Source: Promethearchaeota archaeon (lineage in GTDB: Archaea > Asgardarchaeota > Lokiarchaeia > Sigyniarchaeales > SOKP01). From it: a DNA stretch of 64,000 nucleotides. Positions 4,633-54,174 of the stretch are shown piece by piece; within the stretch, counting starts at the first letter, position 1; every line of letters begins with the position of its first letter. The DNA lies in the NCBI GenBank assembly GCA_048939995.1, contig JBHLOY010000006.1, positions 128,001 through 192,000 of the forward strand, given 5' to 3'. The position numbers and the translations under genes are program-made. Under the pieces are notes generated by a model. It had not been told where the DNA came from. It searched no databases and saw nothing but the letters and a program-made list of their open reading frames with translations.

Positions 4633-6138
4633 ATGAATGAAATTCATGATTTTTCTGTAATGAAGGATGGATTAAATTATAAATACTATGTCAATGGAAA
4701 ATGGAAAGTATCAGATTCGGGTAAAATTACTGCTATTTACAATCCTTATAATAATGATTTAATTGGATATGTTCAAGCGTGTAGTAAAAAAGATGTTGAT
4801 GAAGCGGTTAATTGCGCTAAAGAAAATGTAGATTGCTGGGAAAACACACCATCAAAAGATAGAATTGATGTTTTAAGAAAAGCAGCAGATTTAATGATGA
4901 AATGGGCCGAACCTATAGGAAAAATTCTTATGCAAGAAATAGGGAAACCATTAAAGATCGCTATTTCTGAAATTAGAAGAACTGCAGATATTTTTAATGC
5001 AACAGCAGATGCTGGCTCTCAAATAGTAGGTGAAACAATTATGGGAGACGCATTTAAAGGTTTTAATAAAGACAAAATATCAATGACTTATAGAATCCCC
5101 TTAGGAGTTGTATTATGTATAGGACCATTCAATTATCCTTTTAATTTAACAGGTTCAAAAATTGCTCCAGCACTCGTAGCAGGTAATAGTGTTATTGTAA
5201 AACCACCAAGTGAAGGTGCTATAACGCCATTACATTTTGGTGTAATTTTAGAGAAAGCAGGTCTCCCCCCAGGTGTATTTAATATTATTACAGGACGCGG
5301 TTCAGAAATTGGAGATTATTTAACCGGGCATCCAAAGATAGATATGATAGGTTTTACAGGATCTTCAGAAACAGGTAAGCATCTTTCTAAGGTAGCAGGA
5401 ATGAAACCTTTATTATTAGAACTTGGTGGAAAAGATGCTGCTATAGTTCTTGATGATGCTGATTTAGAATTAGCTATTAAAGCTATAGTAAAAGGCGCAT
5501 TTTCTTTTAGCGGACAAAGATGCACTGCAGTTAAAAGGGTTTTACCAATGCCAAGAATCGCGGATATTTTAGTAGAAAAAGTTACCAAAGAAGTATTGAA
5601 TTTAAGTATTGGGAATCCCGCAGAAAATATGACAATAGGACCTTTAATAAATTCACAAAGATGCGATTACGTTCAAGGATTAATTGATGATGCTTTGAGT
5701 AAGGGAGCCACTTTAAAATGTGGAAATAGAAGAGAAGGGAATATAATGTGGCCAACTATTCTTGATAATGTAACAACAGATATGCGGGTAGCATGGGAGG
5801 AACCATTCGGTCCCGTATTACCTTTCATTCGTATTCGTAGCGCTGAAGAAGCAATTGATATTTCAAATAAATCAGAGTATGGATTACAAGGTATGATTTT
5901 TACTAATAATATTGATCTGGCGTTTAATATCGCTCAAGAATTAGAAGTTGGGACAGTTCAAATAAACGGTCAGAGTGAGAGAGGACCTGATCATTTTCCA
6001 TTTTTAGGAACTAAATCCTCTGGATTGGGGACTCAAGGTATCAAATATTCAATAGAGGCGATGAGTCGTCCTAAAGTTGTGGTTATGAACTTAAGTGAGA
6101 AAGGGAAATTAATTCATGAGTGTAGGGTAGATAATTAA
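4633..6138 (+). CDS. gapN: Non-phosphorylating NADP-dependent glyceraldehyde-3-phosphate dehydrogenase (ALDH family)
   Basis: PFNYPFNLTGSKIAPAL, LELGGKDAA, FSGQRCTAVKR, WEEPFGPVLP and RGPDHFPFLG motifs, typical of GAPN. Confidence 0.88.
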   Translation: MNEIHDFSVMKDGLNYKYYVNGKWKVSDSGKITAIYNPYNNDLIGYVQACSKKDVDEAVNCAKENVDCWENTPSKDRIDVLRKAADLMMKWAEPIGKILMQEIGKPLKIAISEIRRTADIFNATADAGSQIVGETIMGDAFKGFNKDKISMTYRIPLGVVLCIGPFNYPFNLTGSKIAPALVAGNSVIVKPPSEGAITPLHFGVILEKAGLPPGVFNIITGRGSEIGDYLTGHPKIDMIGFTGSSETGKHLSKVAGMKPLLLELGGKDAAIVLDDADLELAIKAIVKGAFSFSGQRCTAVKRVLPMPRIADILVEKVTKEVLNLSIGNPAENMTIGPLINSQRCDYVQGLIDDALSKGATLKCGNRREGNIMWPTILDNVTTDMRVAWEEPFGPVLPFIRIRSAEEAIDISNKSEYGLQGMIFTNNIDLAFNIAQELEVGTVQINGQSERGPDHFPFLGTKSSGLGTQGIKYSIEAMSRPKVVVMNLSEKGKLIHECRVDN

Positions 6139-46506: not shown

Positions 46507-47928
46507 TTATTCATTTTTTTTCAAATAATTAATAATTTTTTTACGTTTTTCTAACGATCTTAAAGCAGACGCTTCAATTTTTTTTTCCATTATATCCTTT
46601 CTTTCAGGGAGTTCCTCTCCAACTTCTTGCTTAATCTTTGTGTAAGCTGATTCTCTAAATCTTGGCAATATTGTTTCTGCTTTCTTATCTTTATATATCA
46701 TTTTTATTTGTTTTGAATCATCCACATAACCAATTTCTGCGCATTTTACATTGATTTTTGATAAATCTGAAATTATTTCTTTTGTAATAGATTTAGAACA
46801 GTAAATTAGTAGAGCATCTAATGAAACACCTAAATAATCAACTCCAACTCTTTCTAGTAAAGCCAAGACTGCTGGATTTACTAATTTTTTTACCTGCTCC
46901 TCATAAATTTTAACACCACACCCTGCTTCATAATTGATTTCATATAGATCTCCTCTAAGTCCTCCATTTGTAATATCACACATTGCTCTAATTTCTTCTA
47001 TATAATTCTTTGAAAGAATTTCTTTACACGCTTCAAGAAATTTAATATTCATCGTTTCGCTTATGATTTCATGATTTCCTGAATATATTGCTGTTGTTGT
47101 AATTGTTCCACCCCCTGCCCCTTCTGTCATCAAAATTTTATCCCCTACTTGAATATTCCGTCTAGCTAAAAGATTATCTTTTAAAATACCTACAGCGCTT
47201 ACTCCACCAACTAAACGATCTCCAATCACCATATCTCCTCCGATTCTTAAAGTAGATCCCGCAGTAATGGGTACACTTACTAACTCTGATATAGTTGATA
47301 TACCAGCCATAAAATCAAAAAGTTTACCCACATCAGCGTCATCTCCTAGGTGAACATCGACCATAATGGATATTGGTGTTGCACCTTTAACGTATAGATC
47401 TCGTAGTGCAGCTCTCGATACGCTTCATGTAAACCCATTACATGAAATTACGTGAAAACCACACACAAATGGAAAGTCGCTCAGCCGACTATGGATGCCT
47501 TCCATTTTAGATACTATTATAAGTTCATTTTCAGCTTCAAATCCTTCAATATCAGAAAGTCTTACTGCACCAGCATCATCTAACGAGCTTGGTGATAAAA
47601 ATGATTTATAATCGGTTTCTGACAATTCTGTTACCAACTTATGAACAAAAAAATCCCCTGCTCCTCGGCAACCGACACCCTGCTTACCGATTGTTACACC
47701 TGAATTATGAATCTCTAATAATTCTCTTACAAATCTATTGGATACATATTTTAAATCACTTTTCTTACACTCTTCTAAGATCGTTTTTGCATATTTCTGG
47801 GCAGATTGTAAATCAATATCTTTAAAATCAAGATATTCTTTGACCAATCTTTTTATAATAACTTCCTCAGAATTTCCTTTTTTCATTAAATTTCTTGTTA
47901 AACCTTCTAGATCACTCAAATTTTTCAC
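46507..47928 (-). CDS. PurM/HypE-like AIR-synthase-related protein, intron-containing; join(complement 47448..47928, 46507..47417), 463 aa after splicing
   Basis: The two listed ORFs are in the same frame and form one protein: GVGCRGAGDF, LDDAG, GIHSRLSDFPF..GFHV / TRAALRD..., GSTLRIGGD, DITNGGLRGD, PRFRESAYT. Confidence 0.9.
47418..47447 (-). other. Putative canonical BHB intron, 30 nt
   Basis: Exon stem GUGUGGUUUUC/GAGAGCUGCAC, central helix ACGU/GCGU, bulges AA^U and AU^C, perfect 9-bp intron stem UUCAUGUAA/UUACAUGAA. Contains an in-frame UGA; splicing gives GUA ACG AGA (V-T-R). Confidence 0.9.
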
Positions 47929-48010: not shown

Positions 48011-48375
48011 TTAATTTAGAGCCTTCTTAATATTATTAAAAAGATTTTCTAGTGTAAATGGCTTACTTTTAAAGCTAGTTACTCAATAGAAAGAATTGCC
48101 TCCTTAATTGTTTGGTCTGTACTAGCAAATCTAACTTTCGGTTTAACCTTAATTGAATTATTAAAAATTTCCTTAGTTGCTTCAATTCCATTTTTACTTA
48201 ACATTCAGTGATCCATAATAATTCTGTCTGGCTTTTCTGAAAAATTCTTATATATACGAACTGCTTCTTCTCCATTCTTGGCTAATCCAATTACTTCATA
48301 TCTCCCTAAACTTAATGCTTTCTCATAAAGAAGTCTCAACAACAAGTCATTCTTTACAATAAACACTCTTGCGAT
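48011..48375 (-). pseudogene. Degraded CheY-like response regulator receiver gene
   Basis: Hand translation IARVFIVKND...AKNGEEAV...KPDRIIMDH*MLSKNGIEATKEI...KPFTLENL. Internal TGA at 48205-48207, a frameshift near 48085, no ATG, and the acidic pocket changed to KND. Confidence 0.8.
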
Positions 48376-48590: not shown

Positions 48591-49604
48591 ATGAAAATTA
48601 GAATTACGGCTCCATGTAGGATTCATCTTTCATTAATAGATGAGAATGGATATACTGGTAGGGTAGATGGGGGTATCGGATTAATGTTAGACCGGCCTAA
48701 TGTTATCTTTGAGGCGTCTAATAATGCTAAGGAATTCAAAATTGAAGCTCACAAATATTATCGTGAGTCTATTGAGGTTATAAATGAGAAAGCTTCGAAG
48801 GTTTTCAAAGTATTTAATATTAGTAATAAAAATTTTCATTTTCACCTTAAAAGATATTATCCAAGTCATGTAGGCCTGGGCTCAAAAACTCAACTATCCT
48901 TAGCAATTGCTAGTGCTATTATCCTTCTAAAGAAGATTAATAATGTTAAACTAAAGGACTTGACTAAAATTGTAGAACGAGGGGGAACTTCCGGAATTGG
49001 ATGGCGAGGTTTTGAAAAAGGAGGCTTTATCTTAGATGCAGGTCACGATTTTGGTGAAGGAAAAGAAAAAGAAACTTTTTTACCTTCTTCTGCTTCAAAA
49101 AATGCAGAACCTGCTCTTACTCTTTTTAGGCATGATATTCCATCAAATTGGAGATTTATTCTAGTGATACCAAGCGTAGGAAAGGGAGCATATGGAGATG
49201 ATGAAATTGGCATTTTTCAAAATTATGCTCCTATACCAAAAGAAGAAGTTAATGAAGTTTCTCACCAGATTTTAATGAAAGTTATACCTGGTATAATAAA
49301 GCGAGATTTAAAGTGTTTTGGGGAGGGTATAAAAAGGATACAAAACATAGGGTTTAAGAAAATTGAAATAAGCCTTCAACATGATATTGTAAAAGATCTT
49401 TTGAATTATTTTGAAAATTATGGCTTAAAAGCTTATGGAATGTCATCCTTTGGACCTAGTGTTATTGGAATAACTGAATCTGAGTCTGAAGCTAATCTAT
49501 TATTAAAAGAAGTTCAGATTTATCTAAAGGATATTGGAGGTCATATCTATATCTGTAAACCCAATAATTGTGGAGCGAAAATTGAATTTTTAAGTGATGA
49601 TTAA
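48591..49604 (+). CDS. mptG: Beta-ribofuranosylaminobenzene 5'-phosphate synthase
   Basis: PCRIHLSLID, GRVDGGIG, HVGLGSKTQ, RGGTSGIG and GMSSFGP. Confidence 0.9.
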   Translation: MKIRITAPCRIHLSLIDENGYTGRVDGGIGLMLDRPNVIFEASNNAKEFKIEAHKYYRESIEVINEKASKVFKVFNISNKNFHFHLKRYYPSHVGLGSKTQLSLAIASAIILLKKINNVKLKDLTKIVERGGTSGIGWRGFEKGGFILDAGHDFGEGKEKETFLPSSASKNAEPALTLFRHDIPSNWRFILVIPSVGKGAYGDDEIGIFQNYAPIPKEEVNEVSHQILMKVIPGIIKRDLKCFGEGIKRIQNIGFKKIEISLQHDIVKDLLNYFENYGLKAYGMSSFGPSVIGITESESEANLLLKEVQIYLKDIGGHIYICKPNNCGAKIEFLSDD

Positions 49605-49990
49605 TGTCGAAAAATAATTTTAATGAATTTTTTCCTTCAGATCTTTCTGAAAGAGAAAGAGCTTGCTTCGAAATAGGTATAAAGCTTGGAGCACTCTATC
49701 ATATTTTATGTGGAATTCCTATATCTTCAAATAAAGATATTATCGCCTCTATTGAAAGAGGGATAGAAGCTTCTATCTCTTGTCAACCTTATGCTAAAAA
49801 AGTTAAAATAAATCTTGATAGAAGTAAAATTATTGGAGATAAATCAACTGAATTTGCTTATGATGAAATATCTGGTAAAGTAATTGAAGCTGAAGTTGAG
49901 CTTCAATATGAAGCAGTAAATATAATAGCAAAAGTTGAATGGATTGAAGATTTAAAATATCCTCTTATGTATATTGAAAAAATAAGTTAA
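49604..49990 (+). CDS. mptD: Archaeal dihydroneopterin aldolase
   Basis: ERACFEIGIKLGALYH, QPY and YPLMYI. Confidence 0.85.
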   Translation: MSKNNFNEFFPSDLSERERACFEIGIKLGALYHILCGIPISSNKDIIASIERGIEASISCQPYAKKVKINLDRSKIIGDKSTEFAYDEISGKVIEAEVELQYEAVNIIAKVEWIEDLKYPLMYIEKIS

Positions 49991-49995
49991 AGAAT

Positions 49996-50700
49996 TTATC
50001 TTAGATTTTGGATATAATTCTCTATAAGTTCCACACTTTTAAGAGCATCCTGATTTTTACCAAATCTTTTTATGGTTTTGATAGTTTCTTCAATCCTCTT
50101 CTGGTACTTAGTTATTAAAAACTCTTTTTTCGTTTCAAAAGCAGTTTTCAATCTTGTGGTAAGAATAATCGTTTCTAAAGTCAAATTCTCGGCTCTATTA
50201 AAGAATTTGTATGATTCTTTTAATTTGTAGCTTACAAGTCTTCTTAGCATAAATTCTGATAATTTAACTTCTCCAAATTCATCTTTTTTTATAAAATGCA
50301 ATTCATTAATTAACTCACAAACTATTATTAGCCATGCTTGTTTAATAAAGGGAAATTTTCTCGTATAAGGTTTATTTTCTCTCTTTAAATTATAGTAGTC
50401 ATAATATTTATTCGGAAAAATTCTAAGCTCTTCAGAAAGAAAATATCCCTTTAATGCAGCTAATGCGTATAAATAGACATTCTCCACAAAGTTAATACAA
50501 ATAAGACCAGTTTCTTTTAAATTCTTGTAAGTAGTCGTATTAGGATACGGAATTATACTTATGGTCTCCTTATCTTTTATCCTAATTCCCATACATGATG
50601 TATTAGGTATTATTTCCTCTTTATTTTTAGAGAAGGTTGTAGCTAAAGTCTCATATAAATATCCTTCTTTAATACCATATTCTAGAAAGTTTGTTGTCAT
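49996..50700 (-). CDS. DUF447-like protein (methanopterin-associated)
   Basis: ETLATT, PNTSCMGI, TTYKNL and FNRAENLTLE; located in the methanopterin cluster. Confidence 0.7.
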   Translation of the reverse strand: MTTNFLEYGIKEGYLYETLATTFSKNKEEIIPNTSCMGIRIKDKETISIIPYPNTTTYKNLKETGLICINFVENVYLYALAALKGYFLSEELRIFPNKYYDYYNLKRENKPYTRKFPFIKQAWLIIVCELINELHFIKKDEFGEVKLSEFMLRRLVSYKLKESYKFFNRAENLTLETIILTTRLKTAFETKKEFLITKYQKRIEETIKTIKRFGKNQDALKSVELIENYIQNLR

Positions 50701-50775
50701 AAGATCCTAAAACTGGAATTGATTTTATTCCTTCTCTAAAGTCTATAATCATTTAGAAATAAAATTTTGTATACT

Positions 50776-51312
50776 TTATTTAAGTCGTTGTTCGGATAAT
50801 TTGAGATGATCGGTTTCTACTTCTACAAAGGCTTCAAAAATTTCTTTTATACGAGGATTTGAAGATTTTACTGCGGCTTCATTATAAAATTTTATAGCTC
50901 GCTCCTCCCTAGAATGCGATTCTTCTAAGTTTGGTGTATATTCAGAAGAACAAGCGTCATATTCGGGAAATTCAACCTTATCCAACCTTAAAATTTTCTT
51001 CCATACTGAGGCATGCTCATTTTCTACTTTTGATAAGATTTTAAATAGTTTTTGGCCTTCAAGATCTGGGGTCTTTTTACTTGCGCATTTATAGAAGATG
51101 GTGTTTGATATTTCAACTTCTAAAGCTTTTTCTGCATAAAGACGATCCTCTTCATTTAGATCTACATCCCAATCACCTTTATCATCATAATTCTCAGCCT
51201 TAACCATATATCTTTTATAAGCTCCACAGAAAGGACAACGGCTGGGGCTTTCCTTTCCAATATAGGCTTCTCCACAGATTTTACAAACAAAAATATTTAT
51301 TACAGTAATCAT
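50776..51312 (-). CDS. Rubrerythrin-like protein (N-terminal rubredoxin knuckles, ferritin-like domain)
   Basis: CKICG...CPFCGA and ExxH motifs (ENEH, ETDH). Confidence 0.88.
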   Translation of the reverse strand: MITVINIFVCKICGEAYIGKESPSRCPFCGAYKRYMVKAENYDDKGDWDVDLNEEDRLYAEKALEVEISNTIFYKCASKKTPDLEGQKLFKILSKVENEHASVWKKILRLDKVEFPEYDACSSEYTPNLEESHSREERAIKFYNEAAVKSSNPRIKEIFEAFVEVETDHLKLSEQRLK

Positions 51313-51496
51313 TTACACCTCACTTTTTTAAGGTTAATTAAATTCCATTTGATTTAAATTTTGAGAATAATTTCTTTTATATTTTTTAAAGGATTAACTT
51401 AGTACTATTAATTTATAGTTATAAACTAGTAAATATAAAAAGAATTATTGTACTTTCATATATAGTTAATTTCAAAAATATCTGTTCTTTGATAGA

Positions 51497-52594
51497 ATGA
51501 AAAATGAGAATAATCTGATAACTTTAGGCGTAGATCCGGGAACGCTCAGCTGGGATTTCTTTGGCTTAGAGGGAAATGATATTATATTAGATTCATCAAT
51601 ACCTACTAAAGAATTAATTAAAGATCCTCAAAAGGTAATCTCATTAGTAAAATCTATAGAAAACATAGACTTAATGGTAGCTCCCAGTGGCTTTGGTCTT
51701 CCTTTAAAGAATGTATGCGATTTAACCGAGAAGGATATTTTTTTTACTCTGTTAAAGTTTGATAAAGAAGAAAAAAATAAATTGATCGGGTTAGGAGAAG
51801 TTTTACGCTTAATCAAATCTGCAAACATTCCTGGCGTAATTGTTCCAGGAGTTAAACATTTACCAACAATTCCACGATATAGGAAAATCAATAAGATTGA
51901 TATGGGAACAGCAGATAAACTATGTACAGCGGTTACAGGTATTAGAGATCAAATGGAGAGATTTGATATTCCTCCTGAAGGTACTAACTTTATAATGGTT
52001 GATATTGGTTATGGGTTTACTGCCGTGTTAGCGATTGAGGATGGTCAAATTATTGATGGCATTGGAGGATCAAATATTATGGGATTTAGAGCATGCGGAA
52101 GTCTTGATGGAGAATTAGCGTACTTAATTAAAACTATTAAGAAAAAAAATATTTACAAAGGTGGGGTCTCATATATCGCGGGATACGAAGATCTAAGCTT
52201 AGAAGAAATATCTTTATTAGCTAGAAGAGATGAGCAAACTGATGTTGCACTTAATGCCTATCTCTCTAGTGTAAAGAAATCTACGTACGCGATATCATCA
52301 TCTTTCTCTAGAAAATCTAAGATAAAGGAAGTTCTTATCGCTGGGCGTGGCACAGATTTAAGGAGTTTGAAAGAGAAGATAATTAGAAATCTTAGTGATG
52401 TTGCTCCAGTTAAATTAATGAAGTCATATAGTCATTTATCTAAACATGCCGCCCAAGGTGCAGCTTTCATAGCCAATGGATTGTTAGGAGGAAAATTTAA
52501 ACCGATAATTGATAACTTAAAGATAAAGGAAGCCACTGGTTCAATATTAGATGATATTTATATTCCATTTGATAAAAAGAAATTCATTGAGTGA
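51497..52594 (+). CDS. DUF1464-like ASKHA-fold protein
   Basis: GVDPGTLSWD, APSGFGLP, NKIDMGTADK and GSLDGELAY. Confidence 0.78.
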   Translation: MKNENNLITLGVDPGTLSWDFFGLEGNDIILDSSIPTKELIKDPQKVISLVKSIENIDLMVAPSGFGLPLKNVCDLTEKDIFFTLLKFDKEEKNKLIGLGEVLRLIKSANIPGVIVPGVKHLPTIPRYRKINKIDMGTADKLCTAVTGIRDQMERFDIPPEGTNFIMVDIGYGFTAVLAIEDGQIIDGIGGSNIMGFRACGSLDGELAYLIKTIKKKNIYKGGVSYIAGYEDLSLEEISLLARRDEQTDVALNAYLSSVKKSTYAISSSFSRKSKIKEVLIAGRGTDLRSLKEKIIRNLSDVAPVKLMKSYSHLSKHAAQGAAFIANGLLGGKFKPIIDNLKIKEATGSILDDIYIPFDKKKFIE

Positions 52595-54174
52595 TAAAAA
52601 TTCGTAAAATACTAATTATAACTGGTATAAACAGTTATCCAATTATAAAGAAAATTGCTCAATCAATAAAGAATTGTGAAATTGAAGTTTATAGAGCTCA
52701 AATTTCAGTATCTGCGTTTATATCAGAGGAAATTGTTCGTAAAATACTTAATGAAATCCAAATAACTGACTTTGATTTAATTTTGCTCCCTGGATTTATC
52801 CAATGGAATACTACTGCTTTAGAACAAAAATATGAAATCAAAATAAGAAAAGGTCCAGAATTTGCTTCAGATTTAGACATAATATTGAAAAATTTAGACA
52901 CAATAGATTTATCAAATAAGATTCCCGCTAATAAGCTTATTGAGATTTCTGGCGAGAAAGATTTTCAAGAATACGTAAAAGAGCAATATGAGATTGCTAG
53001 AAAGAATATTACTGTTCATACATTTTATATTAATCAAGAAAATTCAGATTTAATGGTGGGTCGTAATTTACCTCCTCCTCTGATTGCCGAAATTGTAAAT
53101 TGCCCTGAAAAAAGTGATAAAAATATCCTCCAAAAAGTGAAACATTATATAGAATCTGGTGCTGATATAATAGATATTGGATGCGTTTCAAATAAACCAA
53201 ATCCTAGTAGGATAAAACAAATAATTAAACTTATCAGAAAAAACTTCAACGTATTAATAAGTATTGATTCAATGGTAAAGAATGAGATTTTTGCAGCAGT
53301 TGAAGAGGGTGTTGATATGATTCTTAGTCTTGACGCTGGAAATTATAAGCAATGCCTTAGTCTGCCGAAAGATATCCCAATAGTGATCCTACCCACAAAC
53401 ATTAACGCAGCTTGCTTTCCAAAAGATCCAGTCACAAGAGTGAAAAAGTTATTCGAACTTACAGATAACCTTAAAAGTAATGGTTTCAGTAAGCTTATCG
53501 CAGATCCTCTACTAGAAACACCTATTTCTCCTGGAATTTGCCCCTCTTTAGAGACATATTTTTGCTATAAAAAGAAGGTAGCTGAAGAAAATTACAAGAA
53601 ATTTGAACTCCCAATGTTCTTTGGCATTTCAAACGTTGTAGAATTGATGGATGTCGATTCAGTGGGAATTAATGGCCTCTTAGCTAGCATTGCGATTGAA
53701 CTGGATGTAGGAATAGTTTTTACAGTTGAACATAGCAGTAAACTTATGGGAGGTGTAAAAGAATTGAAGGATTCAATCAAATTAAATTATCTTGCAAAGT
53801 CTAAAAAAACCCCACCAATAAATTTAGGTCTTGAAATTTTCAGGGCAAAAAAGAAAAAGTCTCAAAAATCACCCATTATCGATGAAAAGAACGCAATTAT
53901 TCTAGAAGGCCAAAACCAAGATTATGTCCCTGATAAGAAAGGATATTTTAGAATCTATATTAATCATTATTCAAAGAAATTATATGTAATGTTCTATACA
54001 TGTGAGCATAAACTACTTTATACTTTCATAGGGGAAAATGGAGAAACTATATGCAAACGAATAATTCAAACTAATTTAACAAGTAATATTTATCATCTAA
54101 ATTATCTTGGGAGAGAACTAAATAAAGCAGAATTATGCTTAAATTCTGGAAAAGCTTATATTCAAGATGAATGA
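52591..54174 (+). CDS. Dihydropteroate synthase-like protein (methanopterin pathway-associated)
   Basis: IAEIV, SGADIIDIG, ISIDS, IADPLL, FFGISNVVELMDVDSVGIN and C-terminal YLGRELNKAE...YIQD. Confidence 0.85.
   Translation: MIKIRKILIITGINSYPIIKKIAQSIKNCEIEVYRAQISVSAFISEEIVRKILNEIQITDFDLILLPGFIQWNTTALEQKYEIKIRKGPEFASDLDIILKNLDTIDLSNKIPANKLIEISGEKDFQEYVKEQYEIARKNITVHTFYINQENSDLMVGRNLPPPLIAEIVNCPEKSDKNILQKVKHYIESGADIIDIGCVSNKPNPSRIKQIIKLIRKNFNVLISIDSMVKNEIFAAVEEGVDMILSLDAGNYKQCLSLPKDIPIVILPTNINAACFPKDPVTRVKKLFELTDNLKSNGFSKLIADPLLETPISPGICPSLETYFCYKKKVAEENYKKFELPMFFGISNVVELMDVDSVGINGLLASIAIELDVGIVFTVEHSSKLMGGVKELKDSIKLNYLAKSKKTPPINLGLEIFRAKKKKSQKSPIIDEKNAIILEGQNQDYVPDKKGYFRIYINHYSKKLYVMFYTCEHKLLYTFIGENGETICKRIIQTNLTSNIYHLNYLGRELNKAELCLNSGKAYIQDE

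Follow-up and report, generated by a model that had tools for sequence, protein, structure and literature searches.

A predicted 30-nt tRNA-type intron in a PurM-fold gene of a lokiarchaeial genome, with signs of spread alongside a candidate nuclease

Splicing of archaeal mRNA at the tRNA-intron motif called bulge-helix-bulge (BHB) is named for two cases, cbf5 and a Haloferax leader (PMC7714728). The intron that cbf5 pre-mRNA carries in Desulfurococcales and Sulfolobales (Watanabe 2002; Yoshinari 2006; Yokobori 2009, PMC2738675) is short, lacks an open reading frame (ORF) and lies in coding sequence, while that of HVO_1309 in Haloferax volcanii (Schwarz 2020, PMC7714728) is an EndA substrate in a 5′ untranslated region (UTR). 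According to PMC2738675, BHB introns in genes other than cbf5 had only been predicted. Papers on Asgard archaea cover tRNA introns (PMC11291895; bioRxiv 10.64898/2026.10.13.758758), and a 2026 preprint treats the arrival of Asgard introns as the open problem. In the literature searched, with subscription papers mostly outside its coverage, cbf5 is the sole confirmed case of splicing inside archaeal coding sequence and no BHB intron in an Asgard mRNA is reported. Here we describe a 30-nt insert in a PurM-fold gene of a Promethearchaeota archaeon (Lokiarchaeia; GenBank assembly GCA_048939995.1, contig JBHLOY010000006.1, positions 128,001 to 192,000), the 64,000-nucleotide stretch analysed being called the window. 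Judged from genome sequence, the insert is almost certainly a real BHB intron of the tRNA type, spliced by EndA from a protein-coding mRNA. The overall explanation that we consider best, such an intron together with the probable manner of spread proposed below, is very likely correct.

Coordinates are positions in the window, where the PurM-fold gene lies on the minus strand; further labels denote genomes (G, G000 being the source genome), contigs of G000 (C), loci (L) and proteins (P). The gene and the parts of its insert are as follows.

47919 to 46507, minus strand: PurM-fold gene, TTG start to stop
47448..47919, minus strand: exon 1, TTG at 47919, codons 1-157 and base 1 of Thr158
47418..47447, minus strand: predicted BHB intron, 30 nt, phase 1, in-frame TGA at 47425-47427
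46507..47417, minus strand: exon 2, remainder of Thr158 to stop, with invariant Asp164 and the AIRS and AIRS_C domains
47454..47464, minus strand: 5′ arm of the exon-exon helix, by folding
47450..47453, minus strand: 5′ strand of the central helix, ACGU (exon)
47447..47449, minus strand: first 3-nt bulge, AAU, predicted cut 47448/47447
47424..47446, minus strand: intron hairpin, perfect 9-bp stem and 5-nt loop
47420..47423, minus strand: 3′ strand of the central helix, GCGU (intron)
47417..47419, minus strand: second 3-nt bulge, AUC, predicted cut 47418/47417
47406..47416, minus strand: 3′ arm of the exon-exon helix, by folding

An earlier note on this DNA had proposed a canonical BHB intron of 30 nt at this place, and folding bears the proposal out: at minimum energy the RNA takes up the BHB (-24.9 kcal/mol, with an ensemble frequency of 0.68, z = -5.0 and 0 of 200 shuffles), and all BHB features open to testing are present. 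The central helix ACGU/GCGU (4 bp, three Watson-Crick and one U-G), the two 3-nt bulges, the perfect 9-bp intron stem and its 5-nt loop were recovered as the note had drawn them, with the bulges on opposite strands and the handedness that a canonical BHB has. Its exon-exon stem of 11 bp with G-U pairs also stands, formed by 47464-47454 with 47416-47406 and including four such pairs; its position needs correcting, since the last paired base is 47406 and not 47407. Unspliced, the frame reads GFHVISCNGFT*SVSRAALRD as described, the stop being the TGA at 47427-47425, and excision of 47418-47447 gives GFHVTRAALRD. Of 27 possible 30-nt removals, the BHB-predicted one alone produces Thr.

By the established rule, EndA cuts each bulge behind its second base (PMC2738675). 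We propose that the transcript folds into the BHB, that EndA would cut both bulges by this rule, and that RtcB would ligate the exons to give the ACG codon of Thr158 and a PurM-fold enzyme of 460 aa; unspliced RNA would yield only a 164-aa stump. G000 encodes one RtcB and two EndA paralogs (PF01974 genes), which lie at C3:124319 and C28:98308.

The identical insert occurs in five further independent assemblies (three Logan runs and two NCBI MAGs), which rules out an assembly error. In a strict BHB scan of the 3.75-Mb genome it ranked first among frame-restoring sites at -23.7, followed by a site in fwdA at -16.8, with nothing below -10 in a wrong-handed control. A relaxed genome-wide scan did no better than the wrong-handed control and overlooked real cases, so no genome-wide count is given; ARAGORN calls of tRNA introns looked unreliable and were left out as well. 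No second copy of the intron sequence was found in G000 at up to 5 mismatches, an Rfam search of the insert at E 1 gave no match, a search of viral contigs turned up no relative, and the exact spliced-junction pattern had no match in JGI metagenomes. A self-splicing group I or II intron was ruled out, the insert being 30 nt where a ribozyme core takes hundreds of bases, with Rfam blank. Palindromic tetramers make up the central helix, ACGU at 47450-47453 and, in fwdA (L121), CAUG twice; duplication of 4 nt alone would make a palindromic central helix and is a possible origin of such introns.

Orthologs were collected from 156 distinct Promethearchaeota loci; as the genomes are related, these counts are no independent tests, and the JGI loci were chosen by likeness to the intron-type exon 1, so that P values calculated from them overstate the significance. 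At 101 loci the site is uninterrupted, as the note had expected of an alignment, and carries Thr in 93, Ala in seven and Ser in one. The other 55 have an insert at the same site, of 30 nt in 46 (each with a stop), 29 nt in eight and 28 nt in one, the last two classes shifting the frame. Cutting at the BHB yields Thr in each of the 55, and the central helix has four of four pairs in 52 of them and three of four in the remaining 3. Across 21 orthologs 95% of cells are paired and six pairs have changed on both sides (0 of 500 shuffles; 29-56% in slid controls), compensatory changes falling at five of the nine pairs of the intron stem. The exon-exon helix keeps 10.55 of 11 pairs in intron-bearing orthologs against 5.5 in intronless ones, and only in the former are silent positions of the exon codons at the junction frozen.

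These variants bear on a reading in which the UGA is recoded as selenocysteine or Trp and the protein keeps a 10-residue insertion. Lokiarchaeota do make selenoproteins, and 44 of the 46 inserts of 30 nt have UGA as their in-frame stop. Yet the nine inserts of 28-29 nt shift the frame, three contain TAA, the orthologs have neither Cys or Trp nor an insertion there, and the UGA is accounted for by its pairing with UCA in the intron stem. Length and stop variants across orthologs thus exclude read-through, and recoding, with which neither the frameshifting nor the TAA variants agree, is barely conceivable. Orthologs carrying a 10-residue insertion, which the note had named as grounds for giving up the intron, did not appear as any natural stop-free case. 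Two apparent ones, P0146 (L356) and P0148 (L357), are false full-length proteins in which TGA was called as Trp, and full-length database proteins with the intron-type exon 1 proved to be either such gene-calling artefacts or intronless alleles.

Alternatively, the repeat CGTA, present on both sides of the insert, could serve ribosome bypass or excision at the DNA level, giving GFHVSR. One intronless ortholog, L097, reads exactly GTA TCG (Ser), the expected product. Against this stand the single Ser and the 93 Thr among the 101 intronless loci, the lack of matching take-off and landing codons in L058 and L085, the constant size of both 3-nt bulges as intron length varies, and the absence of such a repeat from the EF-1alpha, purA, dnaG and caiB inserts described below; we regard bypass or excision as very improbable. 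The L097 allele itself (L097:2990-3010), matching a DNA deletion between intron-flanking CGTA repeats, is possibly a scar of intron loss.

The start of exon 1 agrees with the orthologs and with the NCBI call P0131, and the closest relatives of the gene are all Promethearchaeota (Lokiarchaeota, Asgard). Its spliced product of 460 aa aligns without a gap over 460/460 residues to the intronless P0003 at 76% identity. A model of the protein has the PurM fold, with HypE the nearest structure (E 1e-21, TM 0.76-0.81 by target), and the AIRS and AIRS_C domains are shared with HypE, ThiL, SelD, PurM and PurL of the PurM superfamily, at about 19% identity and with additional N- and C-terminal helices. 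It scores under every NCBIfam cut-off, including purM, hypE, thiL and selD, the purM profile giving 22.6 bits against 236 for ortholog P0003. The note's PurM/AIR-synthase-like host is accordingly a member of the PurM superfamily and not PurM itself; we take it for an ATP-dependent enzyme. In relatives mptG-mptD often lie divergent from the gene, and the protein may, as a guess, serve pterin cofactor synthesis. In the window a methanopterin-type cluster occupies 48591-54174 (beta-RFAP synthase, dihydroneopterin aldolase, DUF447, DUF1464 and a DHPS-like gene), and in most relatives larE is convergent with the intron-bearing gene.

The Thr158 junction falls within helix 150-166, six residues ahead of the invariant Asp164, which in alignment falls on HypE's conserved ND motif. 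At this place either a 10-residue insertion, as recoding would leave, or loss of residues 158-175 is implausible. The latter matters for a further alternative, that insertion of a hairpin left the gene as two pieces or as a pseudogene. Gene callers do output products of 164-167 aa and 285 aa, and there is an in-frame ATG at 47364. The two pieces, however, would lack residues 158-175 with the invariant R159, L162, R163, D164, K168 and G169; in either exon dN falls far short of dS, a sign of purifying selection; only one full copy of the gene was detected in G000; and the same kind of break occurs in essential single-copy genes. A split or dead gene is therefore a poor candidate, to which we give very little weight.

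Six other genes of G000 carry an insert at a conserved motif with a complete 4-bp central helix, and its removal mends the motif.

C11:167400-166081 (L119): EF-1alpha, 33-nt insert
C6:82147-82206 (L120): metG (MetRS), 32-nt insert
C17:377423-377452 (L121): fwdA, 30-nt insert
C7:109894 (L122): purA, 30-nt insert
C11:487216-487268 (L123): dnaG, 34-nt insert
C38:64683-64738 (L124): CaiB-type gene, 31-nt insert

The sole copy of EF-1alpha has TAG and TAA within its P-loop, and the sole copy of the MetRS gene a frameshift ahead of the HIGH motif; a BHB-like cut mends either, and both genes are intact in most relatives. Four of the six are unbroken in the majority of relatives, the insert recurring in a few. 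The EF-1alpha insert is shared with G018, that of metG with G010 and G019, and that of purA with five relatives. Since a living cell must make EF-1alpha, some mRNA repair must occur, and BHB splicing is the one mechanism that fits all the broken genes.

The intron is scattered over the protein tree, with 11 changes, and as a label it needs 7 changes on the exon-1 tree against 18 on the exon-2 tree. Among 12 intron-bearing alleles exon 1 is alike at a median of 83%, compared with 72% for exon 2 and 69% among intronless pairs, and exon 2 of these alleles matches intronless kin at up to 90%. Exon 1 disagrees with the exon-2 neighbour in 9 of the 12, against 2 of 45 intronless alleles, most mosaic breaks lying 2-29 codons past the intron. 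Upstream of the intron-bearing copy an intronless 5′ stump remains in L224, L230, L232, L236, L252 and L332; the stumps end at varied points, none past +8 codons and three at +7 or +8. Comparison of a filled site (L254) with an empty one (L064) shows a 4.2-kb insert and a 13-codon stump between flanks that are 93% alike, exon 2 being 99% identical from 69 nt past the junction. The pattern is what co-conversion of flanking DNA with the intron would leave. Assembly chimeras were rejected as the source of the mosaics, since L086 and L099 differ from intronless kin in exon 1 alone and agree with them in both upstream DNA and exon 2, and L254 contains both flanks; an integrase-driven element was set aside as well, no integrase being seen in the smallest cassettes.

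The cassettes differ in content. An 11-kb island at L332:2609-13972, between two 5′ copies of the gene, holds SAVED, ThiF and JAB genes (CBASS-like) and the candidate nuclease introduced next, and others hold restriction-modification genes, a reverse transcriptase (RT) or a TIR-NTPase; the insertion site looks like a hot spot for defence genes. In the slot upstream of two intron-bearing alleles the usual nuclease is replaced, by a double-HNH endonuclease gene at L067:1183-2268 and by a Rep-like gene with an HUH motif at L048:1195-2385.

Within 4 kb upstream of the PurM-fold allele, 10 of 42 intron-bearing loci, against 0 of 93 intronless ones, have a conserved ORF (540-630 aa) immediately ahead of the new exon 1. 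In L230 and L333, which have the smallest cassette, it is the sole gene between stump and new exon 1, and the alleles next to it are 83-92% alike in exon 1 and 68-77% in exon 2. Its product bears Cys/His repeats, and the C-terminal domain shows the pattern E...PD...DxT...K. The model of this domain (pLDDT 91) best matches restriction-enzyme-like nucleases at middling scores, among them the R2 endonuclease domain (Foldseek probability 0.95, E 0.007), Can2 (Z 7.0, rmsd 3.1 over 117 residues), R.BspD6I, BstEII and BglII, and the ORF may encode a PD-(D/E)XK-like nuclease. An Atlas search with it gave only scores under 0.82.

We infer that the intron probably spreads through this gene family with the help of the nuclease, in a manner resembling collaborative homing. 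The mobile unit would be a cassette of nuclease gene, promoter, new exon 1, intron and a few codons that enters intronless alleles: the nuclease would cut near the junction, the cassette would be copied in, the host's old 5′ half would be left as a stump and the gene would be restored. The intron would interrupt the recognition site of the nuclease and so make the restored copy immune; later the nuclease gene would decay and the bare intron stay.

A real intron could also have become patchy with no part played by the nuclease, through a single ancient gain, numerous losses and ordinary recombination in the gene's best-conserved block, with the nuclease as hot-spot cargo. The variety of cargo just described (CBASS-like, restriction-modification, RT and TIR-NTPase genes, and the HNH and Rep-like genes of L067 and L048) speaks for this, as does the majority of intron-bearing loci that have no nuclease beside them. 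It sits poorly with mosaics nearly confined to intron-bearing alleles, with the nuclease as sole gene between stump and new exon 1 in L230 and L333, with its absence before all 93 intronless alleles, and with exons 1 that are so much more alike than exons 2 in the alleles it adjoins. We consider a spread free of the nuclease unlikely.

Several observations weigh against splicing with nuclease-driven spread. Cutting and ligation of the 30-nt insert are predictions from the sequence. The model of the candidate nuclease reaches a best Z of 7.0 with no Foldseek hit at E ≤0.001, and the candidate has no Pfam or PHROG match. Most intron-bearing loci, the copy in the window included, have no nuclease next to them; distant members of the nuclease family mostly lie beside genes in which no intron was verified, and the one in G000 is on another contig (C17:23989-25719). 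In the window, moreover, exon 2 and not exon 1 looks imported, the reverse of the usual pattern. A relaxed BHB scan around the distant homologs returned noise (80 against 65). One such homolog, in G051, is directly followed by a thiolase-like gene (L339:4828-6181) with a perfect 32-nt BHB insert (5311-5342) and two further short inserts; the copy of this gene in G017 has one in-frame stop, and that of G000 aligned without a break.

For the copy in the window, exon 1 and the genes around it cluster with G019 and G010, the nearest genomes (starred tree branches), and exon 2 clusters with L031 (starred branch), with a break near codon -18 and dS of about 1.0 and 1.3 against 3.0 and 2.4. No nuclease gene adjoins it; upstream, at 48079-48372 on the minus strand, lies a decayed response-regulator receiver gene, without a start and with an internal TGA, whose counterpart is intact in several relatives. 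A converted tract that extended downstream may have brought in the intron here but not the nuclease gene. Elsewhere in G000, C6:7243-7401 (minus) is an orphan, intronless relic of the PurM-fold gene; it stops 7 codons beyond the intron site, as stumps in relatives do. The import of exon 2 and this relic fit conversion and are no proof of it. That the bare intron in the window arrived by the cassette and nuclease route is, to us, an evenly balanced proposition.

With 55 natural variants of the insert, and with the EF-1alpha, MetRS, PurA, DnaG and FwdA genes broken alike, mRNA splicing by the tRNA machinery appears routine in this Asgard lineage. We lean towards the broader view that splicing of protein-coding mRNAs by the tRNA endonuclease is routine in Loki-type Asgard archaea, and that conserved genes acquire micro-introns as the immunity component of homing cassettes: a site-specific nuclease would insert in its own target gene, provide a new promoter and first exon, and hide its site with a 30-nt intron that leaves the protein unchanged. 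If true, such a process would let the closest prokaryotic relatives of eukaryotes gain introns and replace exons at the DNA level. The subject bears on the origin of intron-containing genes, and the filled and empty sites together with the candidate nuclease supply one testable route for intron arrival. XBP1 and HAC1 are instances of mRNA splicing without a spliceosome, and may link it to the origin of such splicing. For annotation the consequence is practical, as genes broken by such introns are split or dropped.

Among described systems the cbf5 intron shares most with the insert: both are short, ORF-less and in coding sequence, cut between codon bases 1 and 2 in a conserved motif, patchy across lineages and, as proposed here, EndA-dependent. 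The PurM-fold intron differs in its Asgard phylum, in its host, an enzyme gene, in a BHB that is strictly canonical, most cbf5 introns having a relaxed one, and in belonging to a set of at least seven such inserts within a single genome. Splicing of cbf5 was shown by cDNA and its history is read as one gain with few losses, whereas splicing of the present intron is predicted and its distribution suggests lateral spread with a nuclease. The HVO_1309 intron is likewise an EndA substrate in mRNA, but lies in a leader and leaves the reading frame unbroken. Asgard tRNA introns (PMC11291895; bioRxiv 10.64898/2026.10.13.758758) have the same motif, the same enzyme and repeated gains in Asgard lineages. 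For the spread, the nearest parallel is collaborative homing by F-CphI and the ORF-less group I intron of psbA in cyanophage S-PM2 (PMC6083498; PMC10448857), where a free-standing nuclease, paralleled by the candidate in relatives of G000, lies beside the intron-bearing gene, the intron is placed where it could block self-cleavage, and flanking DNA is co-converted. Unlike the psbA intron, the one described here would be a protein-spliced BHB of 30 nt in an archaeal chromosome, with no nuclease beside the copy in the window; the candidate in relatives is PD-(D/E)XK-like with Cys/His repeats and its cleavage is only predicted, and the cassette would insert inside the gene, bringing a new promoter and exon 1.
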